Notes under the pieces: generated by a model | Database searches by the model: none | What the model saw: only the letters and a program-made list of their open reading frames with translations | Told to the model about the DNA's origin: nothing | Virus record (IMG/VR): IMGVR_UViG_3300005614_001084 | Coordinates: 1-64,000 of that record | DNA length: 64,000 nt | Source of the DNA: a virus | Taxonomy: Duplodnaviria; Caudoviricetes | Direction: 5' to 3' (one strand) | Program-made: the position numbers and the translations under genes | Shown: piece after piece, positions 1-63,146 of the stretch | Numbering within the stretch: the first letter of the stretch is position 1 | How the letters are laid out: every line of letters begins with the position of its first letter

Positions 1-3000
1 CGCATGCGGCCGAGAGTGGTGTTCCCGACACCAGTGATGTGGATCTCCTGGTTCAGGTTGATCCGGTTCTGGCGGAACGCGGTCTCGGCGTCGTCCTTCG
101 TCTTGAAGGGCTCGCCGTGCTTGCCGCGAGCGATGCTCATCCGGTAAAGGCTGAGCGCGGCCTCGTTCGCCGGAGCGAAGAGAACGTCGCCGCTGCTGTC
201 CGACAGCGTGCGCTGCGACGGCAAGATCCGATGCGCCTCTTCCACAGCGCTCTGCGTCAGCGGAACCATCAGAGCGACGGTGTCACCGTCGATGTCGCCG
301 CCGAGAGGCGGCAGGATGAGCGGGCTGACCTTGATGGCGGGATCGTCGGTCAGGCGCACTCGCTGCGCCACGAGCCCGTACTGGTGCAGCACGGGATCCC
401 GCTTCATCAGCACCGGCCGCGTCAGAACCTCCTGTTCCAACGCCCTCACCGCCATCGGATCCTTGCGGCTGATCATACGCTGGGCTTCGTCCGGCTTCAC
501 GCGCGCCTGGATGAGACGACGCGCCACCATCGGGCGCATCAGCTCCATAGCGATCTTCTTCGGCAGGCCCATCTCGTCGACGCTGAGGTTGGGGTCCACG
601 ACGATGGTGGCGCGGGACGTATAGTCCTGCTTCTTCGCGATCATCTTGTCCTGGAAGAAACCGTCCTTCGGCTGCTCACCGGAGATCATGTGGATGATCC
701 CGGGCAGCGTCTTATCCGGATCTTCCTTGGTCCCGCGCATGTCGAGATCGAGCGCCTTCTTTCCCTTCGGCGTGGTACCGAAGAGGTTGCCCATCTCCTG
801 GTAGAGCCCGGCGCGAACGTCGAGCGTGTTGTTGTACGGCACCTTCTTCTCGCCCTTGCGGATCGTCTCGTTCACCATGCCGAGCCGCTTGTACAGCGAG
901 TTGAGCGGATTGTTCTTCACCGTACCGTCGGGCAGCGTGGTCTGCGGACGAAACACCGGCGGCAACACCGGGATCGCGCTCATCGTCCAGGCCTCGGCCA
1001 GGTTCTTCCCGCTCTCCTTCACGGTCTTGAGCGATCGGTACTTGAAATGCAGCTTGTCGAGCGCGGTGCCCTTGACCTTCGGGTCTTCGAGCGCCGACTT
1101 CGTCCGCTTCATCTCCTTGTCGATGTCGATCTTGGCCAGCGCAGCACGGATGGCCGCACCGCCATACGTACCGTCGGGCAGCTTCGCCTTCCCCTCGATG
1201 ATGTTGGGGATGTCGCGCTCCTTGATGCCGAGCGTGTTCGCGATCGAACGTGCGTAGACGGGATTCGGCATCGGCTCCACCAGCTCGATGTGGCCCCAGT
1301 GCTGGCCGAGCGGGCCTCCGGTGATGACGGGGTCGAAGAGGCCTCCGGGCTCCGGCCTGTCGTCCTTGCCCCGGATACCGCGCGTCGGGCGCGTGATCTC
1401 TCCACGGCTCAGCGCCCGCACCTCTTCATCGCTACGCGGCATCAGACGGATCTCGGCCCCGGTCTTCTCCACGTTGACGCCGAGACCCGTCAACATCGCC
1501 TCGAACTTCTTGAAAACGAAGGGCACCTTGGGCGCCGGTACACGATCGCCGTTCGCCAGAGCACCCCAGACCTCTCGGGCCTGCGGCTGATCCGACTTCA
1601 GCGTCTGCATCTCACGGAGGTTTTCCTTGAGACCAGCAGCCAACGCCGCGTAGACGCCGAGCGCACCCAGACTCTGGGCGCCGGAGTGACCACCGCCGCG
1701 GGGCACGCGCGTGTCGTTGTCGTAGTGGATTTTGGGCGCATCGTACTGCGCCAGCTCACCGCCGTATCCACCCGAGCGGACGTGCGTCTTCTTGTCGATC
1801 TGATGTTCGAGCTGGAACGCGTAGTGAGGACCCACCATCACGTCACCGAGACGACGCCCGGTCTTCGGGTCGTAGAGCGCCTCGGTGTCCGTGAGCCCGT
1901 GCGCCGACAGCTCGTCCTGCATCTTCTTCAGATAGTCGACCCCGCCCTGGAAGTTCTTCACCAGGTACGGCTTGCCGGTCTTCTCTGCGATCTTACCCGC
2001 TGCGGTCTCCAAGAGCTGCCCGGGATTCATGCGTCCCGGTACCGAGACCGGGTTGATGAGCATCTCGACTGGACGGCCCTTCTCGTCGTGCGGCATCTCC
2101 TTGTCGGGGATGATCTGCGTGACGATGCCCTTCGCGCTGTGACGCGTCGAAATCTTGGAACCGATCTGTGCGGGCTCCAGGGTCTTGAGGTGCACGACGA
2201 TGTTCTTGCCCTGACGCTCCGCTCGTACCACTTCCGCTTCGTAATCCCCGTCCCAGACCATGGCGCCGTTGTTGAACTTGCTGCGAAGCCGCTTGCCGAT
2301 CTTGAACTTCGCGCTGAGATCGGCAGTACCCGGAAGCTGCGTCTCGGTGAGCGCAAGCACGAGCGGATCACCCGGCTTCACTTTCTCTCCGGCGCGAATG
2401 ATTCCGTCGTCTCCGATCTTGGCCACTCGATCCTTCGAGTAGATGGCGCCCTTGTCGATGAGGAACTGCCGCTTGCCGACCACTGTGGAGTCGGAGATCA
2501 GCATGGTCGGTTTGTACAGGTGGTCGGAGGCGAGACGACGGGCCGCGCTGTCGGAGATGACGATGCCGTCCTCGTGGTTGGAGCCGTTCGCGATGTAGGC
2601 GGTGCGCAGGTTTGCGCCGAGAGCCAGTACGCCGTCCCTCGTGTAGTTGTTGTCCGCGACGATCTGCTTGGACGTGACGGAATCGCCGGGCTTCACGAGC
2701 GGAGTGCTGTGGAGCTGACCCTTCAGATCGTTGGTGGGGTAGTGGTGGTAGAGATGGACGGAGTGATTCCCTCTGTCCTTGCCTCGGATGAGGATCTCGT
2801 CCGGCTTCACTGCGGTGACGATGCCATCGACGGGGGAACGATGGCTGAGGAACCCAGTACCGACGATCTGCTCGAAGCTCCTGCCGGCACCGGCCTCCAC
2901 CTGTACGAGAGGAGCCTCGCGCCCGACGACACTGATCGCCTGTGCCATGTGACGAGCCGACATCGTAGAGCGGCCCGCGCTGTCGTTCTGCATGAACGGC

Positions 3001-4508
3001 ACGAGGTTGGTCTCCACGGCGAATATCTGCGCCGCCGTAGGCATGACGTAGTCGGCGGACGACATCGGTAGATCGTCGACCATCTGACCGCGTCCGTTCG
3101 ACATACGGACCGACTTGCCAAGCGGAACGGGAGTGCCCTTGTCCCACTTCACCTGATCGGGGAGCACGACGTTGCTGACCGCAGCCGTGGCGGCGTCGAC
3201 ATCCTCCATCTTCTTCGTTTTGGTGTTGTAGAGCCGCATGTGCGGCTTACGATCTTTCACCATGACGCCGAACGTCAGGTGCGTGTTCACGCCCGCATTC
3301 GACTCCGGGGTGAACACTGGGTCGAGGAAGCCGAGATGGCTGGGATCGAGGCTGGTGTTCGACTTCGAGAGCGCGTGAGGATTCTGAATACCGCCGGGGC
3401 CGGTGATCGTGACCATGCTGTGATCGGCGAGCATGGAGACCGGGTTCGTCTGCTTGCCGTTGGCGGACAGCGACGTGGTGAAGACGTGGTACAGCGGACG
3501 CTGAATGACGTCGGGCGCGAACACGTCGCGCAGCACGGTGGCATCGCCGGAGAGCAGGCGGCGCTGGGTCGTGGGCTTGCTGAGCGCGCGCTGCACGCGC
3601 ATCTCGATGTCGTCCTTCGCCTTGGCGATACGATCCACGAACTGGTCCCGTGCCTGCCACAGCTCCTTGTACCGGAGACTGTCGATCGGGTCGGGGTCGC
3701 GACGCTTTGCCGCGACATCGAGCAGCTTCTTCGACGCCTCGAACAACACGTCGCCGTTCACGCGCTCCGACTTCACGCCGACGTTGGCCTCGGAAACGAT
3801 CGGGTCGATGCGTGTACCTTCGAAGATGGCGCGGGCTTCCAGCGCCGGATCCGTACCGGCGGGAAGCGGCTCCTTGCGCCACGTCTCGTAGAACGACTTC
3901 AGGTCACGAGCGACGTTGGCCTTCTTCTTCGACGCCTCGAACGCATCCTTGCCCCACGACGCCTTCATCTGCTCCTCGGACACGCCGAGTGCGGTGAGCA
4001 CGGAGAAGAGAGGGATCTTGCGAGAACCCAGCTTCATGTAGAGCTGATCGTCGTCGCTCTTCTGCACGTCGAAGCTGCGCCCCTTGGCGAGCTGGAACTG
4101 CGCCTCGAACTCGCCGGGCTTCTCCGTCGCTTTCACGTAGACGCCCGGGCGCAGTCGCCACTGATTCGTGATGAACTTCTCCTGCCCCGCGACGATGTAG
4201 GAGTAGTGACGCGTCAGCTTCGGGATCTTGGCGACCGGGTAGTCCTTCTTCGTGATCAGCGGCTTTCCGGTCGTGGTGTCGACGACGCTGAGCGTGCCGG
4301 TGACCGGCGCCGCCCACGTGCGTCCTTCCATCTTGTGCTTCTGCTGATCCTTGATGTCGTCGACCCCAAGGCGGTCGTCGACACGCAGGTCGTCGACCCG
4401 CACCTCGAAGCGCCCCGTCCGGTCCTTGACCGGAAAGGTCTGGGAGATCTGGGAGAGAAGCTGGGTCTTCAGCTCCTCGAACTGGTGGCGCGGGTCGGAG
4501 GTGAGCAC
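1..4508 (-). CDS. rpoBC: Fused beta-beta' multisubunit DNA-directed RNA polymerase (partial, runs off the left edge)
   Basis: Hand translation from GTG 4508 gives RpoB motifs (YIVAGQEKFITNQWRLRPGVY; GFLDPVFTPES; NLVPFMQNDSAGRSTM; GSNHEDGIVIS; GSKISTRHSAKG; NPVSVPGRMNPGQ; LREMQTLKSD). These run with no stop into RpoC motifs (GLFDPVITG..WGHIEL; IPVLPPVFRP; KKQDYTSRATIVVDP; KRDPVLH; catalytic GGDIDGD at 282-302). It is absent from the ORF track, consistent with no stop inside the window. Confidence 0.95.
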   Translation of the reverse strand, partial: MLTSDPRHQFEELKTQLLSQISQTFPVKDRTGRFEVRVDDLRVDDRLGVDDIKDQQKHKMEGRTWAAPVTGTLSVVDTTTGKPLITKKDYPVAKIPKLTRHYSYIVAGQEKFITNQWRLRPGVYVKATEKPGEFEAQFQLAKGRSFDVQKSDDDQLYMKLGSRKIPLFSVLTALGVSEEQMKASWGKDAFEASKKKANVARDLKSFYETWRKEPLPAGTDPALEARAIFEGTRIDPIVSEANVGVKSERVNGDVLFEASKKLLDVAAKRRDPDPIDSLRYKELWQARDQFVDRIAKAKDDIEMRVQRALSKPTTQRRLLSGDATVLRDVFAPDVIQRPLYHVFTTSLSANGKQTNPVSMLADHSMVTITGPGGIQNPHALSKSNTSLDPSHLGFLDPVFTPESNAGVNTHLTFGVMVKDRKPHMRLYNTKTKKMEDVDAATAAVSNVVLPDQVKWDKGTPVPLGKSVRMSNGRGQMVDDLPMSSADYVMPTAAQIFAVETNLVPFMQNDSAGRSTMSARHMAQAISVVGREAPLVQVEAGAGRSFEQIVGTGFLSHRSPVDGIVTAVKPDEILIRGKDRGNHSVHLYHHYPTNDLKGQLHSTPLVKPGDSVTSKQIVADNNYTRDGVLALGANLRTAYIANGSNHEDGIVISDSAARRLASDHLYKPTMLISDSTVVGKRQFLIDKGAIYSKDRVAKIGDDGIIRAGEKVKPGDPLVLALTETQLPGTADLSAKFKIGKRLRSKFNNGAMVWDGDYEAEVVRAERQGKNIVVHLKTLEPAQIGSKISTRHSAKGIVTQIIPDKEMPHDEKGRPVEMLINPVSVPGRMNPGQLLETAAGKIAEKTGKPYLVKNFQGGVDYLKKMQDELSAHGLTDTEALYDPKTGRRLGDVMVGPHYAFQLEHQIDKKTHVRSGGYGGELAQYDAPKIHYDNDTRVPRGGGHSGAQSLGALGVYAALAAGLKENLREMQTLKSDQPQAREVWGALANGDRVPAPKVPFVFKKFEAMLTGLGVNVEKTGAEIRLMPRSDEEVRALSRGEITRPTRGIRGKDDRPEPGGLFDPVITGGPLGQHWGHIELVEPMPNPVYARSIANTLGIKERDIPNIIEGKAKLPDGTYGGAAIRAALAKIDIDKEMKRTKSALEDPKVKGTALDKLHFKYRSLKTVKESGKNLAEAWTMSAIPVLPPVFRPQTTLPDGTVKNNPLNSLYKRLGMVNETIRKGEKKVPYNNTLDVRAGLYQEMGNLFGTTPKGKKALDLDMRGTKEDPDKTLPGIIHMISGEQPKDGFFQDKMIAKKQDYTSRATIVVDPNLSVDEMGLPKKIAMELMRPMVARRLIQARVKPDEAQRMISRKDPMAVRALEQEVLTRPVLMKRDPVLHQYGLVAQRVRLTDDPAIKVSPLILPPLGGDIDGDTVALMVPLTQSAVEEAHRILPSQRTLSDSSGDVLFAPANEAALSLYRMSIARGKHGEPFKTKDDAETAFRQNRINLNQEIHITGVGNTTLGRM

Positions 4509-4513
4509 ACCGC

Positions 4514-4543
4514 AGTCTACTCGGCGCCGAAACAAAGGGTCAA
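4514..4543 (-). promoter_or_regulatory. TTGACC-N18-TAGACT promoter; leaderless start of the RNAP gene
   Basis: -35-like element 4538-4543 and -10-like element 4514-4519, 5 nt before GTG 4508; no SD. Confidence 0.65.
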
Positions 4544-4560
4544 CGCGCGTGCGTACGCAG

Positions 4561-4570
4561 CTATCAGCAG
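4561..4570 (+). promoter_or_regulatory. CTATCAGCAG phage promoter motif
   Basis: Motif recurs in 7 intergenic regions upstream of SD+ATG; here followed by GGAGG and ATG 4583. Confidence 0.7.
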
Positions 4571-4582
4571 GTGGAGGCAGAG

Positions 4583-4705
4583 ATGCAAGATCCCAAGGAA
4601 ACAAGCACCGAAGACAACGACAGCGACAGCCTCAGCGACTTCGAGAAGTCCCTGAACGATGCGCTGGAGCAGTCCACGGAGGAGAAGAACGAGGAACAGA
4701 GCTAG
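4583..4705 (+). CDS. Small acidic protein (40 aa)
   Basis: SD GGAGG; MQDPKETSTEDNDSDSLSDFEKSLNDALEQSTEEKNEEQS; stop abuts the next ATG. Confidence 0.6.
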   Translation: MQDPKETSTEDNDSDSLSDFEKSLNDALEQSTEEKNEEQS

Positions 4706-4816: not shown

Positions 4817-5187
4817 AAGACAAGGTAGAACGCGCTCAGATCGAGGAACCCGATAGCACAAGTACCGGGTTCGACGACATCACCGCACCCTGCGATGCCT
4901 GCGGCGAGGAGAACGTCGGCGTCGGCACGCCCGTCATGATGATCATCCCGGGCATGATCTTCAACAACATCGAGTACGACGTGCCGATGTTCGTCCCGGA
5001 TCCCGACGTGAAGCTGCGCATCGTGCAGCTTCCGAACGGGCAGCTCGGGTTCGTCACCGACCACAACGTGACGAAGTACACGCACCAGGACTGCTACACG
5101 CGCCTCGTCGACGAGGTGGCGTACATGGACCCGGACGAAGACGAGAACGACGAAAACGAAGAGATCGAGGAGAGCGAAGAGGAATGA
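4813..5187 (+). CDS. Hypothetical protein, CxxC...HxxC, acidic C-terminus
   Basis: SD GGAGG then ATG 4813; ATGA overlaps at both ends. Confidence 0.7.
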   Translation: MKDKVERAQIEEPDSTSTGFDDITAPCDACGEENVGVGTPVMMIIPGMIFNNIEYDVPMFVPDPDVKLRIVQLPNGQLGFVTDHNVTKYTHQDCYTRLVDEVAYMDPDEDENDENEEIEESEEE

Positions 5188-6365
5188 CGTACTCATTCAC
5201 ACAGTCAGAGATCTTGGTCCGGCGTGAGCTGGAGATGCAGACCAACCTCATCAAGAAAGGGGTCCGTCATCCGCTGAACAACCCGCTGCTCCTCGGTCCT
5301 ACCGGTATCGGCAAGACGGCGATCGCATCGCGTGCTTGTGATCTCTACGAGCTGCCACTGCTCGCCATCAACTGCGGCGAGAACAGCGACCCCACGGATG
5401 TGTCGGGCGTTCCGGTCCCCAGCATGGTTCGGCACTTCCTGCACAACGGCAGCAACAGCGAACGGGAGGGCGCGCGCGTGGCGTACATGGAGTGGGTGCT
5501 GAACCGCTACGCCGCCATGGCATGCGTGGAGCCCAGCTTCCTGTTCTTCGACGACCTCGACAAGGCCGACCCTTCGGTGCAGGGCGCGCTGCTCGGGGTC
5601 ACAGCGAACCGTCAGTTCCGTGATCGCACGCTGCACCCCGGAACGCTCATCATGGGGGCCGGCAACCGTCTCGGCGATGACCAGCACGCGAACGAGATCA
5701 GCGAATCGCTCCGTACCCGGATGACCATCATCGAGATGATCCCGGACATCGGCAGCTTCGCGACGTATGGTCGAGCCAGCGGAGAGATCCACGACACGGT
5801 GCTGGGCTACCTGTTCTTCAAGCCCGCGCATCTCTTCGAGCACATGGACAACGTGCCGCGCTTCCCCACCCCTCGTGGGTGGTGGGAGGTGTCGCAGCAG
5901 TTCTTCGCCTACCCCAGCCCGAAGCAGGACGTCTTCAACAACAACACGCCCTCGAACTGGAAGGGCATCGTGGAGCGGAAGTGCGGCCAGGCAGTCAGCA
6001 ATGACTTCTGGGCCTGGCACGAAGTCATCAGCGAGGTCAACGTCGATCAGATCCTCCTGAACGGTGACGTGCAGTTCGCGTCGAGCGGCGCGGAGCGTCG
6101 CATGAAGCAGTTCGCTGCGATCTACGCCGTGGCCGTGCGCCTGAACCAGAGCGGTGTGCAACCGCAGTACACCGGTCTGGAGAAGGCCGTCGCATCGCTC
6201 GATCCCGAGATGCGCGTGGCTCTCGTCGTCCAGCTCAAGATGAAGGTTCGGGTCGACATCGCCACGATGTTCCCGAAGACCGCCGACGTCATGATGTCCG
6301 ATCTCGTGCAGATGGGAGACGGCGAGAGCACGCTCGTCGCCCCCAAGAAAGGAAGTACTCCATGA
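5184..6365 (+). CDS. MoxR-like AAA+ ATPase
   Basis: Walker A GPTGIGKT, Walker B FLFFDDLDKA, GAGN sensor, LRTR arginine finger, FPTPRGW. Confidence 0.85.
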   Translation: MTYSFTQSEILVRRELEMQTNLIKKGVRHPLNNPLLLGPTGIGKTAIASRACDLYELPLLAINCGENSDPTDVSGVPVPSMVRHFLHNGSNSEREGARVAYMEWVLNRYAAMACVEPSFLFFDDLDKADPSVQGALLGVTANRQFRDRTLHPGTLIMGAGNRLGDDQHANEISESLRTRMTIIEMIPDIGSFATYGRASGEIHDTVLGYLFFKPAHLFEHMDNVPRFPTPRGWWEVSQQFFAYPSPKQDVFNNNTPSNWKGIVERKCGQAVSNDFWAWHEVISEVNVDQILLNGDVQFASSGAERRMKQFAAIYAVAVRLNQSGVQPQYTGLEKAVASLDPEMRVALVVQLKMKVRVDIATMFPKTADVMMSDLVQMGDGESTLVAPKKGSTP

Positions 6366-7549
6366 TCGATGAGTCCAGCTTCAGAGATGCGGCCGCCCTG
6401 CTTCTGGTGAAGCGCGCGATCCGCGAGCTGATGATGGACTTCCCCCTCGGCGGCCTCTCCCTCATGGGGGAGGCCGTGCGAGTCGTGGAAGACGCCAGCA
6501 TCGGCACGATGTGCACCGACGGACGAATGGTGTACGTGGCCCCGAACTGGGTGCTGAAGAACGCATCGTTCGGGACAAAGTTCGATCTTTTGCACGAGTG
6601 GCTCCACATCTTCTTCAACCACGTCGCACGTAAGGGCGATCGTGATGGAAAGGTGTGGAACGAAGCGTGCGACATGGTCGTGGTGCGAGAGTGTTGCACC
6701 ATCTTCACGAGAAACGGCATCGTGGTGACTCCGCCTGCGGATGGCGTACAGCCGGCCGATTGGGCGAAGGACATGACAGCCGAGCAGATCTACGATCAGC
6801 TTGTCTTGAACAGCTCCTTGCGGCCTAGGCCCAAGGGCGGCGGCGAGACGCAGTCGGCCTCCGACTTCATCTACACCCCGCATCCGCAGGCCACAGAAGA
6901 TCAGTTCAAGCGACAGTTCACCGAAGAGCTGGCCCAGGCCGCGATGATCCAGCAGCAGGTCAAGGGGAAGAGCGTGGAGGAGGTCTACGGCGACATCATC
7001 GGGAACCGTCTCGGCAACGTGCTTCGTACTCGCGTGCCGTGGTCGCGCCTGCTTCGAGGCGACCTGATCTCCGACATCGGTGCCGGCTTCCCCTCCTACA
7101 CACGCCCGAACCGGAAGCACTACCCCGACATCATACTGCCCACCCGACGATCGAGGACGGAAAAGAAGCTCTTCATCGGAATCGACGTCTCGGGATCGGT
7201 GAGCCAATCCCTGTTTCAGGAGTTCAAGTCGAACGTACTGCCGGCGGCGCTGCGCGCGAAGAGCGTCGTAGTCGCGACGTTCGACGCCGCGGTACGAGAG
7301 GTCGTGCGAACGAGCAAGCCTCGCGAGGTGCTCAACCAGGTGAAGTTTCTCACCGGCGCGCACAGCTACACAAGCACGCGTGATCTGTTCAATCTGATCG
7401 AGAAGGAGAACCCTTCGGCCCTTACCATCTTCACCGACGGATTCATCGCAATCCCCCAGAAGCCCTTCCCGAAAACCCTCTGGGTGATCCCGCAGAATGG
7501 ACAGCCACAACCCTGGGGGCGCAACTACATCATGGAGGTGTCGTGGTGA
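6362..7549 (+). CDS. Metallopeptidase-like (HExxH) plus VWA domain protein
   Basis: TMCTDG, LLHEWLH, WNEACD; C-terminal MIDAS GIDVSGS and FTDG; typical MoxR partner. Confidence 0.85.
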   Translation: MIDESSFRDAAALLLVKRAIRELMMDFPLGGLSLMGEAVRVVEDASIGTMCTDGRMVYVAPNWVLKNASFGTKFDLLHEWLHIFFNHVARKGDRDGKVWNEACDMVVVRECCTIFTRNGIVVTPPADGVQPADWAKDMTAEQIYDQLVLNSSLRPRPKGGGETQSASDFIYTPHPQATEDQFKRQFTEELAQAAMIQQQVKGKSVEEVYGDIIGNRLGNVLRTRVPWSRLLRGDLISDIGAGFPSYTRPNRKHYPDIILPTRRSRTEKKLFIGIDVSGSVSQSLFQEFKSNVLPAALRAKSVVVATFDAAVREVVRTSKPREVLNQVKFLTGAHSYTSTRDLFNLIEKENPSALTIFTDGFIAIPQKPFPKTLWVIPQNGQPQPWGRNYIMEVSW

Positions 7550-8973
7550 ACGAACTGCTCGAAGCGGCGGCCAGACAGATCCTACGGGACCGCCTGTCCG
7601 CCGGGTACGCCGATCGAGCACTGCTGCTCGTGGCTGGGTACGAGACGGTCGAGCGCATGAACTTTCTAACGGAGCATCTAGACGCGCTCCAGAACAGGTC
7701 GATCACCTACGTGGAAGCCACTGCCTACGGGCTGTGCCCGGCCTGGGTGCAGAGAACGGGGTTTCGGCTCACCAACCCGTACCTCGACTCCGGCGACTAC
7801 GGTTTGTCGGACCCGCTTCAGATCGCCGCCTTCTTCGCCTCGAACTCGATGATGCCGGAAGCGCAAGCGATGATGGTCGATCGACAGCGGCTGTTCGACT
7901 CGTACACCGCGGCTCGCGCTAGTAAAGTCTCCCCCGTGGTCAACGAAGGGATCTACGAAGTCGACTACTTCGAGAAGGTGGAACCGCGGGTGTTCTTCCG
8001 TACGTGGGTCTGTCCTCCGTTCGAAGACCTTGGACTGGTCCCAGTTCATCGAGATCCAGTGGGCCGCGGTCTCGACACCGTCTACTGCTCGGGCGGCCAC
8101 ACCAAGGCCTCGGTGGTCCACATGATGGAGCATCACTTGAATGGCGAGAACGTGTGGCTGTTCTCCGCGCTCTCTGGTCGCCTCGGGAATCGGTTCCACG
8201 AAGAGCTGAGCCAGCTCGCGTACAAGGAAGTGGTTCGACAAGGTCTCGGACCGACGGGGTCGATCAACTACACCGCCATCTGCCGCTTCCTACAGCTCTG
8301 CACGCAACCTCGTGCCCACGAAGTTATGAACGATCTGTCCGGAGTACGTAAGGCCGCGATCATTTCGCGATACGACGCCAACTCCGAGCAGTACGTGGAA
8401 GGACTTCGCGCCCTCTCCACACAGTTCACCGAAGCGAATCGACGAGAACTTCTTCGGTTCATGGCGAGGACGCCGAAGCTCGACGAGCTGAAGTCAGTCC
8501 GCACCTCCGGCATCATCAACATCCTAGACGAGATGCCGTGGGACCTCCTGGAGCCCATCGCCCGCGAACCCGGGCTTCGAGGCCTCTCGCTGCCCTTCGC
8601 CGAGCGCCTGGGCCCGCAGGTGCTCCACCGCTACCTCACCAACCACGACGCCCGCGTCACGCGAGCCCCAGACGCGCACCGCGAAGCCTCGCAGATGGCG
8701 CATCAAACGATCGTTGCCGGGAACCGCTCGATGGCGGACTGGGGCATCGTGATGAACAACCTCAGCTCATTCTACGCCGACTCCACGCGTATACGTGAAG
8801 GGATGAAGAAGCTCGTCCCCGATCCGTACATGGCTGCGTTGATGGTACTGCGCTGTTTCGCCGAAGGCTCACCGGACATCGATACGATCGTGAAGCATCA
8901 TCCCGCATACGACAAAGTCCAGCGCCTCATCGAGGACTGGACTCCGCCGATCATCACGAGACTCTGGCTCTAG
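7543..8973 (+). CDS. Hypothetical protein (third gene of the MoxR/VWA operon)
   Basis: 476-aa ORF with SD GGAGG, overlapping the VWA gene. Confidence 0.7.
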   Translation: MVNELLEAAARQILRDRLSAGYADRALLLVAGYETVERMNFLTEHLDALQNRSITYVEATAYGLCPAWVQRTGFRLTNPYLDSGDYGLSDPLQIAAFFASNSMMPEAQAMMVDRQRLFDSYTAARASKVSPVVNEGIYEVDYFEKVEPRVFFRTWVCPPFEDLGLVPVHRDPVGRGLDTVYCSGGHTKASVVHMMEHHLNGENVWLFSALSGRLGNRFHEELSQLAYKEVVRQGLGPTGSINYTAICRFLQLCTQPRAHEVMNDLSGVRKAAIISRYDANSEQYVEGLRALSTQFTEANRRELLRFMARTPKLDELKSVRTSGIINILDEMPWDLLEPIAREPGLRGLSLPFAERLGPQVLHRYLTNHDARVTRAPDAHREASQMAHQTIVAGNRSMADWGIVMNNLSSFYADSTRIREGMKKLVPDPYMAALMVLRCFAEGSPDIDTIVKHHPAYDKVQRLIEDWTPPIITRLWL

Positions 8974-10880
8974 GCCGCGGCGCGTCGCGGCGGCAGAACT
9001 TCCGGCAACGGACGCATGTCGACCTCAGGCATGGGCGGGCCACCCGCCCCCTGTGCCTGGGGTCCACCGCCGATCGGCATCAGCTCCTGTGGCATCTGGA
9101 TGCCCTGCTGCGCCAGCAGTTCCATCGCTTCCGGCGCCTTGGACTGAAGCTGCTCCAGGTAGATCTTCTGCTGCTCCGGAGGCATGGCCTTGACCTTGTT
9201 CGCCAAGGCGGCCGAGACCGCATCCATGGAGGCTCCGCTCTGCTGCGTACCAGCGCTCTGTCCTTGGATCTCGTCGAACGGCGTCTTCTTCGGCGCCATC
9301 TCTCGTGCGCCTGCCGTGGTCAGAGCTGCCTGGGCAGACGCCTGGTACTTCGCCATGACGAGCTGCGCCTCGCCCTGAGCTTCCGCTTCTGCGATCATCT
9401 TTTGCTTCAGGGCCTTCGCCTTGATGGCGCTCTCCTGCACCATCAGGTTGGCCTCGTCCTCGACCTTCAGGTCGGTGTAGCTGAGCAGCGTGGCATCGCT
9501 GATCTTGCCCATCTGGTTCAGGCTCAGCATCATGCCCTGGCGCTGGAGATCGTCCGCCATACGGAAGGGCTTGAAGCGCCCGTCCGGCACCGGCCAGCCG
9601 AGGTACGCACCCATGCGCTTCATCATCCAAGCGAGGAAGCGGGAGTGACCGTGCATGTTGGAAAGGAAGAAGTTCTCCAGCATGCGCAGGTTGACGCTGT
9701 TGCCGGCGTAGGTGCCGTCGCCAAAGACTAGATTGATCGGGAAGCCCATGCCCGCGACCATCAACTCGTTGAGCTGCTGGATCTCCGGCATCATGAGCAG
9801 CGCGCGCCCGTTCTCGCCGATGACCTGGTGGCCGAGAGGGAACGGCAGGATGCCGTAGTAGCTCGGATCCATGCGCTGACGCGCCAGCTCGCGGCGGATG
9901 TGGTCGCGCCAGTTCGAGAGGTCGACGGTGGTGAAGGGATCGGCGCCAGCGGTGGCCGGCTGCGGGAACAGGAAGATCTGTGGCACCAGGTGCGTCAACA
10001 TGATCGCTTCCTGGGCCTTGCGCATGACCTGGGCGTAGAAGGCGTCCTTCAGCACCGGCATGAGCAGCGGCACGCCCCATCCACGGCTCATCGTGGAGAG
10101 GCTGGGGCGACGCATGTGGAAGACCTCGGACTTGTCGAAGACGAGCTGGCGCCGAGTCTTCACCGCCTCCAAGAAGATCTCCGGCGTCGTTGCCACGAGA
10201 TCCTTGCGGCCCATCATGACCTGCGCGCGGAAGTCCGGGCTCAGGTCGAGGCCGTAGTCCATGCGGCCGGTGGCTTCGTTGTAGAAGATGTGCACGTACT
10301 CGGGGTTCCACCGGATCATCCCGATGTCCGAGTACTTCGGGTAGTAGTCGTCACGGCTCGTCGCGAAGTCGGTCTGGCCGCACTTCGAGCACTGGAGCCA
10401 CCAACGGTTGTTGACGTAGCGCCACGCCGGGCGCGAGTTCAGGGCGTCGTGCTCCGCACCGCACAATGAGTTGCCGCAGATCAGCTTCTTCCGGAAGGGG
10501 AAGCTGGCCGACATGAAGGCGTTGCCGTACACGTAGTAGTCGAGATTGATCTCGAACTGGTGCACTCGATAGTTCATCACGCCGAGAAGGAGATCCTCCC
10601 AGCGATTGCGCACGCCTTCGTTCTCGTGCTGGATGATCAGGTCGGTGACCGGGTACTCGGACGCCTTCGTGATGACGGCGTTGATGATGCCGTGGGTCAG
10701 GTAGTAGAACCGGCAGAAGCCGAACAGCGCCTTGATCGAGGGCGGCGTGTACGTGCTTGCCTGATCGAAGAAGGGATTGGCGAACGGCTGATATCGACGA
10801 CCGAGTACCTGGCCGCGATCGGCATTGCCGCCCACCGCACGGCCGCCACCCATGGCCGAACCTGCACCACTGAAAAACAT
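8970..10880 (-). CDS. Probable portal protein with a Zn-ribbon insertion
   Basis: 636 aa; portal-like motifs (DYYVYGNAF, VFHMRRP..RGWGVP); CxxxxC..CxxC insert; Q/P-rich tail; sits among head genes. Confidence 0.6.
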   Translation of the reverse strand: MFFSGAGSAMGGGRAVGGNADRGQVLGRRYQPFANPFFDQASTYTPPSIKALFGFCRFYYLTHGIINAVITKASEYPVTDLIIQHENEGVRNRWEDLLLGVMNYRVHQFEINLDYYVYGNAFMSASFPFRKKLICGNSLCGAEHDALNSRPAWRYVNNRWWLQCSKCGQTDFATSRDDYYPKYSDIGMIRWNPEYVHIFYNEATGRMDYGLDLSPDFRAQVMMGRKDLVATTPEIFLEAVKTRRQLVFDKSEVFHMRRPSLSTMSRGWGVPLLMPVLKDAFYAQVMRKAQEAIMLTHLVPQIFLFPQPATAGADPFTTVDLSNWRDHIRRELARQRMDPSYYGILPFPLGHQVIGENGRALLMMPEIQQLNELMVAGMGFPINLVFGDGTYAGNSVNLRMLENFFLSNMHGHSRFLAWMMKRMGAYLGWPVPDGRFKPFRMADDLQRQGMMLSLNQMGKISDATLLSYTDLKVEDEANLMVQESAIKAKALKQKMIAEAEAQGEAQLVMAKYQASAQAALTTAGAREMAPKKTPFDEIQGQSAGTQQSGASMDAVSAALANKVKAMPPEQQKIYLEQLQSKAPEAMELLAQQGIQMPQELMPIGGGPQAQGAGGPPMPEVDMRPLPEVLPPRRAAA

Positions 10881-53868: not shown

Positions 53869-54699
53869 TCACTGTCCCTTGATGACGGGGGCGAGAAGCG
53901 CCTCGACCCTCTTCTTGATGCGGTAGACGCGGTGCTCGGGGATCTTCATGTTCTTGGAGATGGCGGTGATCGACATCTGCGGTGTCCCCTCCTCGGGGTA
54001 GTGCAGGTCGGCGAACTGCCGTTCTTCCGGCTTCAGCTCACTGCGCATGAGATGGTAGGCGCCACGGATGCGCTGGATCGGGTCCTCGACCTGGACGTCG
54101 TGCTCCAGATCGGTACCCATGTCGGTGAAGGCCTCGGATCCGAATCCCTTGTACATCTTGGCGACGTACTTCGGCTTCCACGCCGGCAGCGCGCTCTGAA
54201 GCTCGGTCAGCGTAGGATCGCGCCCGTTCAGCTCCTTGAACTCGCGCTTCGCGTTCTGGAACATCTCGTACTTCTCGACGTCCTCGCGCGGCATGTACTT
54301 GGGATTGCGGTTCTGCGCGACGAAGTCGGTGATCCGCATGAAGTTGTTCACGACGTGGGTGGTGAGCTGCGTCCCCTTGGTCGGGTCGTAGCTTTCCAGC
54401 GCTGCCACGGCGGTGTTGCGGAGCGCGTTCTTCAGCGCGATCTGCGGAATCGACCCACCGAGCCCCTGCATGCGCTTGGTCGTCTCCGAGCGGATCAACG
54501 GATCCAGCGACTTCAGCAGGGGCTCCAGGTGCTCGGGCTTCTTGCCGTTGTCCTTCCAGGTTTCCCAGAGCTTCAGCTCGGCACCACGGCGCCCACGAAG
54601 CTCGGCGTGCCGGGCATGGGCGCGCTCCACCTTGGCCGGGCTGTCTGCCGCGTCCTTGATGAACTTCTCGACCGCCTCGATCTCCTTCTTGGTCGGCAT
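53869..54699 (-). CDS. Sigma-70-family sigma factor (regions 2-4)
   Basis: ALESYDPTKGTQLTTH (region 2), GRDPTLTEL (region 3), LKPEERQ..SITAISKNMKIPEHRVYRIK (region 4 HTH). Confidence 0.85.
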   Translation of the reverse strand: MPTKKEIEAVEKFIKDAADSPAKVERAHARHAELRGRRGAELKLWETWKDNGKKPEHLEPLLKSLDPLIRSETTKRMQGLGGSIPQIALKNALRNTAVAALESYDPTKGTQLTTHVVNNFMRITDFVAQNRNPKYMPREDVEKYEMFQNAKREFKELNGRDPTLTELQSALPAWKPKYVAKMYKGFGSEAFTDMGTDLEHDVQVEDPIQRIRGAYHLMRSELKPEERQFADLHYPEEGTPQMSITAISKNMKIPEHRVYRIKKRVEALLAPVIKGQ

Positions 54700-55012: not shown

Positions 55013-55022
55013 CCGCTGATAG
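55013..55022 (-). promoter_or_regulatory. CTATCAGCGG phage promoter motif driving the sigma-factor operon
   Basis: Minus-strand copy of the motif, about 24 nt before ATG 54998. Confidence 0.65.
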
Positions 55023-62654: not shown

Positions 62655-63146
62655 ATGAAAAGAGACGTCCGTCAACGCTTCTGGGAGAAGGTAAAGATCG
62701 TCGATGACGATACCTCCTGCTGGGAGTGGCAGGGCGGGATTGTCGACGGGTACGGCAAGTTCAACGACGGGACCAAGAACGGCGATCGTTCCCATCGCGT
62801 CGCGTATAAGCTGGAGAACGGACCTATCCCTGACGGGATGGAGGTCATGCACTCCTGCGACAATCGAAAGTGTTGCCGACCCGATCACCTGTCGGTCGGA
62901 ACGAAGCAACAAAACATGGCCGACATGATCTCGAAGGGACGACAAGCCCGAGGCGAGAAGAAGTGGACAGCCAAGATGACGGCCGAGAAAGTGCTCAAGC
63001 TGCGCGAGCGGCATGACGCTGGCGAGACACTCGCCTCTCTGGCTCCGGAGTTCGGTATCAGTGAGAAGACCGCATCGATGATCGCATGCGGTGACATCTG
63101 GAAACACGTCGGCGGTCCTCGCCGCGAGAAAAGGAAGTTCGGCTAA
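62655..63146 (+). CDS. HNH endonuclease with C-terminal HTH
   Basis: CWEWQG..GYG..SHRVAY..VMHSCDNRKCCRPDHL..N. Confidence 0.9.
   Translation: MKRDVRQRFWEKVKIVDDDTSCWEWQGGIVDGYGKFNDGTKNGDRSHRVAYKLENGPIPDGMEVMHSCDNRKCCRPDHLSVGTKQQNMADMISKGRQARGEKKWTAKMTAEKVLKLRERHDAGETLASLAPEFGISEKTASMIACGDIWKHVGGPRREKRKFG

Follow-up and report, generated by a model that had tools for sequence, protein, structure and literature searches.

In the bacterial RNA polymerase an alpha dimer serves as the required platform for assembly, and omega is added to it. The origin of the multisubunit polymerases of phages is debated, and has so far been argued from two forms, the split phiKZ type and the two-gene mReC type. 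Reviews of jumbo-phage polymerases make no mention of a form that is both fused and paired with a sigma factor (PMC7824862, PMC13282480), and we did not find a phage polymerase with full fusion and a sigma partner described in the literature, including PMC7481178, PMC7824862, PMC12619734 and PMC13282480. The closest cultured relatives of the enzyme discussed here, at about 30% identity, belong to Salmonella phage Arash (OQ632216) and to the Vibrio phages D69, D148 and D181; the polymerase subunits of Arash are annotated in the paper describing it, as is its Gp10 as a sigma factor (PMC10585845). This article deals with an RNA polymerase gene at the left end of a stretch of 64,000 nucleotides from an uncultured tailed virus (Duplodnaviria; Caudoviricetes). 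This stretch, hereafter the window, is the first 64 kb of the 172,310-bp linear IMG/VR record IMGVR_UViG_3300005614_001084, a genome of 63% GC. As read from its sequence, the enzyme is a single collinear beta-beta-prime chain of 2078 residues. The fusion is real and conserved, and all the catalytic elements are kept.

The polymerase frame lies on the minus strand, where it extends without a stop from 4604 to base 3, at which point it leaves the record. Its predicted start is the GTG at 4508, which is the likely one because the gene call recorded in a second assembly begins there. An earlier note on this DNA, written without database searches, had reported one open frame of more than 1,500 codons joining a compact RpoB to RpoC, with a junction near 1440-1530 that contained no stop, and had pointed out that the four-Cys zinc domain of beta-prime was absent, that the catalytic loop read GGDIDGD instead of NADFDGD, and that the gene had been missed by the open reading frame track. 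All of these observations are borne out. The frame encodes 1502 residues, of which 1-1018 are beta; the junction lies at 1425-1484 and the loop at 282-302; and alignment with Escherichia coli shows residues 66-97 of beta-prime to be deleted. The default list of open reading frames omits the gene only because the frame crosses the window edge: it is absent when open ends are disallowed and present when they are allowed. Searches with domain models, proposed in the same note, found Rpb2 and Rpb1 domains in one chain, Pfam giving Rpb2_6 (PF00562, E 3.5e-48), Rpb2_3 and Rpb2_2, then Rpb1_1 and Rpb1_2. The codon composition of the frame (GC content of 0.85 at third and 0.42 at second codon positions) matches that of the other genes of the genome. 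The gene and its parts are as follows.

3 to 4508, minus strand: RNA polymerase gene, residues 1-1502 of 2078 (open frame, Pfam, identity to the protein of the second assembly; the 3' part is cut by the contig start).
1455 to 4508, minus strand: beta module, residues 1-1018 (Pfam Rpb2_6, Rpb2_3 and Rpb2_2; E. coli alignment).
3 to 1454, minus strand: N-terminal half of beta-prime, residues 1019-1502, with clamp, clamp helices and catalytic double-psi barrel (Pfam Rpb1_1 and Rpb1_2; NCBIfam rpoC and rpoC1).
1425 to 1484, minus strand: beta/beta-prime junction without a linker, GVNVEKTGA then EIRLMPRSD (the same in all family members, Arash and D69).
1308 to 1313, minus strand: site of the zinc-ribbon deletion (E. 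coli beta-prime 66-97), by alignment and in the whole family.
774 to 902, minus strand: clamp-helix (coiled-coil) region, shortened but present (aligned to E. coli beta-prime 245-350; in bacteria sigma region 2 docks on this region, and it is the putative docking site here).
282 to 302, minus strand: catalytic loop GGDIDGD (D1405, D1407, D1409; the Asp triad is invariant in the family).
2127 to 2144, minus strand: beta active-site motif RHSAKG (RHGNKG in E. coli; K785 and K793 are invariant).
3396 to 3485, minus strand: counterpart of the rifampicin pocket (E. coli beta 505-535), by alignment, with the residues at D516, H526, R529 and S531 replaced.

From the window alone a split enzyme was a live alternative, because the window stops only about 10 codons past the point at which the Arash and D69 proteins end. 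The C-terminal half of beta-prime (Rpb1 domain 5, PF04998) was not found anywhere in the 172-kb record, nor was it found there by tblastn with Arash gp216 and the D69 proteins. Circular continuation was considered and rejected: the contig end at 172310 continues the gene in no frame, and terminal repeats were not found. A search of protein databases supplied the rest in the form of P0009, a 2078-residue protein from a 188,773-bp ENA contig (assembly ERZ27252105). Over the 1502 residues of the window it is identical except for V/M at the GTG start codon, and the genes around it match those around the window's polymerase gene. It follows that the two contigs come from the same phage, assembled further in the second case, and that the IMG/VR record is short by about 16.5 kb; despite a CheckV estimate of 100%, it is incomplete and cut inside the polymerase gene. 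The extra 16.5 kb or so of the longer contig holds the rest of that gene, four unknown genes, the large terminase gene and a GyrB-like gene. The translation of the full gene that the earlier note had called for is provided by P0009, a continuous chain of 2078 residues; beyond the window, at residues 1674-1840, it contains the bridge helix, the second zinc site and the trigger loop. The single-chain enzyme of that note stands as a collinear fusion, with the correction that the window contains just residues 1-1502 of the 2078.

Relatives of the gene were found in nine IMG/VR loci at 55-81% identity. In the seven that contain the whole gene it is one frame of about 2075 codons, and in the two truncated by their contigs the frame is open up to the contig end. 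Translation of the relatives of about 2075 codons adds Rpb1 domains 3 and 5, the bridge helix, a CxxC zinc site and the trigger loop, Rpb1_5 being found by Pfam in the relative P0003. Beyond these loci, more than 110 clusters at 90% identity consist almost entirely of fused proteins of about 2050-2150 amino acids; the same is true of the best 150 representatives of the more than 150 clusters at 50% identity, and the beta/beta-prime junction stays open in hundreds of homologues at 32-89% identity. Some beta-prime proteins among the nearest relatives (1036-1287 amino acids) look as if they stood alone; these were rejected as unfused forms, being fragments or gene calls broken by inteins. Many members of the family (P0014, P0043, P0066, P0236, P0265 and others) carry at least one intein with homing-endonuclease domains and measure 2400-4739 amino acids; one intein of the family sits at the site of the lost zinc ribbon.

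Could the long frame be an artefact of assembly or sequencing that joined rpoB to rpoC, or a chimera with host DNA? The contig is indeed truncated inside the gene, and a GC content of 63% permits long chance frames, such as the plus-strand frame of 1010 codons at 39-3071; this one, antisense to the polymerase gene, was rejected as a high-GC shadow and no gene. What the earlier note had named as able to overturn its claim was a stop or frameshift at the junction, or a host chimera. Instead, two assemblies made independently contain the same protein, and in both of them, as in hundreds of homologues, the frame reads through the junction; it has the codon composition of a genuine gene, the neighbours are phage genes, and a close copy is found in no bacterial genome. 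An artefact is already refuted, and we give it practically no chance of being correct.

At the junction, GVNVEKTGA corresponds to GINIELEDE at the C-terminus of E. coli beta, and EIRLMPRSD to IKIALASPD of beta-prime. The full protein consists of 1018 residues of beta and 1060 of beta-prime, which makes it about 670 residues shorter than E. coli beta plus beta-prime. The segments absent relative to E. coli beta are 1-37, 229-356 (the lineage-specific insert SI1) and 939-1047 (the insert SI2), and those absent relative to beta-prime are 12-29, 66-97 (the zinc ribbon), 146-175, most of 947-1172 (SI3 and its surroundings) and C-terminal segments. The bridge helix and the trigger-loop His are retained. 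Conservation was followed in 32 family members spanning 32-81% identity: no member departs from D1405, D1407, D1409, K785 or K793, and at least 90% of the members keep C1723, C1784, C1791 and C1794. The whole protein has four cysteines, all of them at the second zinc site. Measured against a bacterial-type core, the enzyme has the lysines of the beta double-psi barrel, the Asp triad, the bridge helix, the trigger loop and the second zinc site; it lacks the four-Cys zinc ribbon, and neither an alpha dimer nor omega is encoded alongside it. Since the rifampicin-contact residues are replaced, the enzyme would be insensitive to this drug.

The subclade to which the window belongs has GGDIDGD for NADFDGD, RHSAKG for RHGNKG and NHEDG for NFEDS, as might be expected of a catalytically dead, polymerase-like structural protein. 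However, the deeper members of the family carry fully canonical motifs (NADFDGD, RHGNKG, YNFEDG), GGDIDGD being a derived state of this subclade, and little or no variation is seen at the Asp triad, the beta lysines, the bridge helix, the trigger-loop His and the second zinc site. Such conservation of catalytic residues across the family is the pattern expected under selection for catalysis, and a dead enzyme is very improbable.

The gene is phage-encoded, as had been claimed, and its surroundings are phage genes for portal, capsid and terminase. It is placed between the portal and terminase genes, in the morphogenesis module, and is flanked by homologues of the portal, capsid and tail genes of Arash. 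Among the 185,579 species genomes of GTDB no close relative was found, the best 80 loci being ordinary rpoC genes at 25-30% identity; the best sequence matches in the PDB are bacterial beta-prime chains (E 4e-87). A beta-prime tree was computed from 64 rows, 23 of them bacterial and drawn from about 10 phyla (LG+G4, quick search). The 23 bacterial rows fall on one side (SH-aLRT support 99), and the Arash-type enzymes together with the fused family on the other. Arash and D69 (100) are sister to the fused family (97), within which the window occupies a well-supported derived subclade (100); the separate beta-prime of Rhizobium phage RHph_Y65 joins on a long and uncertain branch. Beta-prime is unsplit both in bacteria and in the fused family, and the junction is common to all the phage members; by parsimony, with bacteria as outgroup, we therefore infer that the full fusion is ancestral and the Arash split derived. 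The rpoC1 (gamma) model of cyanobacteria and plastids ends at the point of that split (P0009 residue 1492, window about 33-35), which looks like a convergent split site.

A second gene of the window concerns the same machinery.

53869 to 54699, minus strand: sigma-70-family factor of 276 amino acids that presumably partners the polymerase (homologue of Arash gp10, E 3e-22).

The window's own sigma protein falls below the Pfam threshold. A profile built from 32 members of its family matches RpoD, SigA, RpoS and FliA in the PDB (E 4e-14 to 1e-6, positions 95-267), and Sigma70_r3 is detected in 23 of the 32. The best listed fold matches of its AlphaFold model (predicted local distance difference test, pLDDT, 80) are sigma chains, with a probability of 1.00 and TM-scores of 0.24-0.35, which are low because the domains are arranged differently. 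With regions 2, 3 and 4 recognisable by profile and fold, the predicted product may be regarded as established to be a sigma-70-family factor. It co-occurs with this core: among 50,697 phage records its homologue is present in exactly the four phages that have this type of polymerase, and in three metagenomic assemblies both sigma and RNA polymerase are found on contigs of 172,748, 180,808 and 188,773 bp, presumably the same contigs. On the core itself, sigma would dock on the retained clamp helices.

It is also conceivable that the phage sigma redirects the host core, in the manner of T4 gp55, and that the fused enzyme works by itself or with some factor that has escaped recognition. It is common for phage sigma factors to use the host core (PMC7824862), and the polymerases of phiKZ and AR9 use factors unrelated in sequence to sigma. 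Yet this sigma is found in cultured phages solely alongside this type of polymerase (four of four carriers, no other record), the clamp-helix region on which sigma docks has been retained, and polymerase and sigma are both present in particle preparations of Arash; we regard a sigma directed to the host core as improbable.

As for the missing subunits, neither alpha (PF01000) nor omega (PF01192) has a match in the 172-kb record, and the missing 16 kb or so, as known from the other assembly, gives no Pfam hits to alpha or omega. Because their genes were not found in the record, covalent linkage of beta and beta-prime would replace assembly on the alpha dimer. A T7-type polymerase model had no match in the record, and as it had none in the control genomes either, that search is uninformative.

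Promoter-like signals were found in front of the polymerase gene and throughout the genome.

4514 to 4543, minus strand: predicted sigma-70-like promoter, TTGACC, 18 nt, TAGACT, ending 5 nt before the GTG.
4561 to 4567, plus strand: CTATCAG, a promoter-like element serving the divergent operon on the plus strand (position conserved in the relatives L011, L012, L013, L014 and L017).
55016 to 55022, minus strand: CTATCAG element before the 99-aa gene that precedes the sigma gene (motif scan).
4561, 15072, 28144, 30385, 31961, 51037, 59542 and 62632, plus strand: CTATMAG sites in the window (motif scan).
55022, minus strand: CTATMAG site in the window, which is the element listed above at 55016 to 55022 (motif scan; 24 further sites lie elsewhere in the genome).

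CTATMAG occurs at 33 sites in the genome against about 10 expected, an approximately three-fold excess. Of the 33 sites, 26 are followed both by a GGAGG-like Shine-Dalgarno sequence at +3 to +32 (24 of them within +11) and by a start codon at +13 to +41 (24 of them within +24). Several sites lie directly behind terminators made of a hairpin and a T-run. CTATMAG is likely to be a phage-specific promoter element.

The polymerase gene is preceded by something different. In the 75-bp divergent intergenic region at 4509-4583, two footprints on opposite strands are invariant in five relatives (55-81% protein identity). The hexamers TTGACC and TAGACT are invariant in the five relatives, the spacer between them being variable, and the pair is unique in the genome. 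No Shine-Dalgarno sequence is found upstream of the GTG, and since the promoter ends 5 nt from this codon, the polymerase mRNA would be leaderless or nearly so. This conserved sigma-70-like promoter, the near-leaderless GTG and the location in the morphogenesis module make it probable that another holoenzyme, in the simplest case that of the host, transcribes the gene late.

Is the enzyme carried in the virion? In the particle preparation of Arash, Gp206 gave the most spectra of any protein (3516), above the capsid protein, and Gp216 and the sigma factor Gp10 were detected as well (PMC10585845). This particle proteome, together with the position of the gene between portal and terminase, indicates that the polymerase of the window is probably packaged. 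The explanation that we prefer is then as follows. A slimmed beta, joined without a linker to a slimmed but complete beta-prime, forms the polymerase core of this uncultured phage, whose genome measures about 189 kb. The covalent fusion would stand in for assembly on an alpha dimer, so that the enzyme would work without alpha or omega. The core would pair with the phage's own sigma factor (53869-54699), and the resulting holoenzyme would read CTATMAG, which stands a few bases in front of the ribosome-binding site in non-structural genes. It would be packaged in the virion and injected, and would start phage transcription without the host polymerase, which should make the process resistant to rifampicin. 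Taken as a whole, a single-chain bacterial-type core with a phage sigma, reading CTATMAG and packaged in the virion, is in our judgement probable, with substantial room for doubt.

Several observations weigh against this explanation. The last 576 codons are known solely as protein from the second assembly, and in an AlphaFold model of residues 700-1502 made from an 8-sequence alignment (mean pLDDT 47.6) the junction segment is not modelled confidently. GGDIDGD, RHSAKG and NHEDG deviate from near-universal motifs, so that an altered activity is possible. The pairing of sigma with the fused core is inferred, and its partner could be the host core instead; CTATMAG could be an RNA-level signal and no promoter. 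With regard to packaging, the Arash polymerase is about 30% identical to the window's protein, the Arash proteome also lists ribonucleotide reductases, primase, helicases and kinases (PMC10585845), and by its authors' own account the particles may have been contaminated with abundant infection proteins (PMC10585845).

These last points bear most directly on a version in which the single-chain polymerase is real but unpackaged, being made after infection for middle or late transcription with the phage sigma, while the host polymerase reads the first genes. The Arash preparation evidently contained cytoplasmic enzymes, the conserved sigma-70-like promoter of the polymerase gene could be read by the host holoenzyme at any time, and a single polymerase is encoded, unlike in phiKZ with its virion and non-virion sets. 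Packaging, on the other hand, is favoured by the spectral count of the Arash homologue, the highest of all and above that of the capsid protein, and by the place of the gene in the morphogenesis module beside the portal gene in this phage, in its relatives, in Arash and in D69. An unpackaged enzyme thus strikes us as rather unlikely, although it deserves to be taken seriously.

The neighbourhood of the gene contains further features. A portal homologue and several very large proteins (862-1345 amino acids), at 8970-10880 and 37483-59523 on the minus strand, are without PHROG match; the portal homologue has no Pfam match either, and the four genes downstream of the polymerase in the relatives gave no match in PHROGs or Pfam. 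The lineage is almost absent from reference libraries of phage families. On the plus strand, the divergent operon contains an overlapping pair at 5184-7549, consisting of a MoxR-like AAA_5 ATPase (393 amino acids) and a DUF2201/vWA protein (395 amino acids). An HNH homing-endonuclease gene lies at 62655-63146 on the plus strand (PF13392, E 4.5e-18), with a CTATCAG element in front.

The earlier note had called a collinear fused enzyme in a phage unusual. This is right for the literature and wrong for nature, where more than 150 clusters at 50% identity are found in metagenomes. The family is very large there, has cultured relatives in Salmonella and Vibrio, and appears to be unstudied. In its boldest form, the proposal is that of a self-contained machine of two genes, the fused protein and sigma: the smallest known bacterial-type holoenzyme, folding and working without alpha, omega or zinc ribbon, carried in the virion, reading CTATMAG, and belonging to an old lineage that stands beside, not within, the sampled Bacteria. 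We put this combination at somewhat less than an even chance. If it is true, a single chain of 2078 residues that needs only sigma would offer a compact, tractable system in which to study how the polymerase assembles, how sigma docks and how promoters are recognised, and the fused polymerase with its sigma would be a candidate orthogonal transcription system. The enzyme also bears on the debate about where phage multisubunit polymerases came from.

How does this enzyme compare with those already described? Arash, D69, D148 and D181 share with the window the linker-free beta/beta-prime junction, the zinc-ribbon deletion, a portal gene upstream and a homologous sigma factor; their genomes, of about 180-190 kb, are similar in size to that of the window's phage, and they form its sister clade on the beta-prime tree. 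They differ in that a break at about E. coli residue 551 divides their beta-prime in two, where the chain of the window's phage is continuous (P0009 residue 1492), so that a protein of 1525-1527 amino acids, containing beta and the N-terminal part of beta-prime, is followed by a C-terminal part of 606-610 amino acids encoded 0.6-5 kb downstream. The window's enzyme therefore has the junction and the deletion of the Arash type, without a separate gene for the C-terminal half of beta-prime.

The bacterial core, including the RpoBC fusions of Helicobacter and Wolbachia, has the same collinear order, the same catalytic motifs and a partner of the sigma-70 family. In contrast to it, the window's enzyme is without zinc ribbon, SI1, SI2 and SI3, and its genome is without alpha or omega. 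The NCBIfam models of these fusions, PRK09603 and PRK14844, have curated cut-offs of 5372 and 4632 bits; the protein scores 401.6 and 374.6 bits, which places it outside both, and on the tree the fused family stands outside the 23 sampled bacteria.

The mReC phages (PMC7481178) resemble the window's phage in being tailed and in having polymerase subunits that are easily aligned with those of cells and that fall outside Bacteria in trees. Their beta and beta-prime are however two genes (with different gene numbers in Supplementary Data 2 of that study), and fusion is not mentioned in PMC7481178. The study required the motif NADxDGD (PMC7481178), which the window's protein does not have; with its fused gene and its GGDIDGD, this protein is not an mReC polymerase. 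The capsids differ too: those of mReC phages are T4 gp23-like, and the window's phage has a capsid homologue of the Arash type (307 aa). Rhizobium phage RHph_Y65 also has a separate beta-prime, comparable to that of the mReC phages.

The polymerases of phiKZ and AR9 are, like that of the window, two-barrel phage enzymes without alpha or omega, one set of which is packaged (PMC7598289, PMC7824862). They consist of 4-5 polypeptides, are far more divergent, and have no sigma-70-family factor. PHROG families of the phiKZ type match the window's protein weakly (E 1e-28 to 6e-6, where the best matching families reach 4e-86 and 3e-66), and its one chain and sigma-70-family gene set it apart from this type. 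Finally, crAss-like gp66, YonO and gp96 of Thermus phage P23-45 likewise carry both barrels on one polypeptide, and some of them are delivered with the virion. These are minimal enzymes, barely alignable with beta and beta-prime, whereas the protein of the window has the full collinear bacterial architecture.

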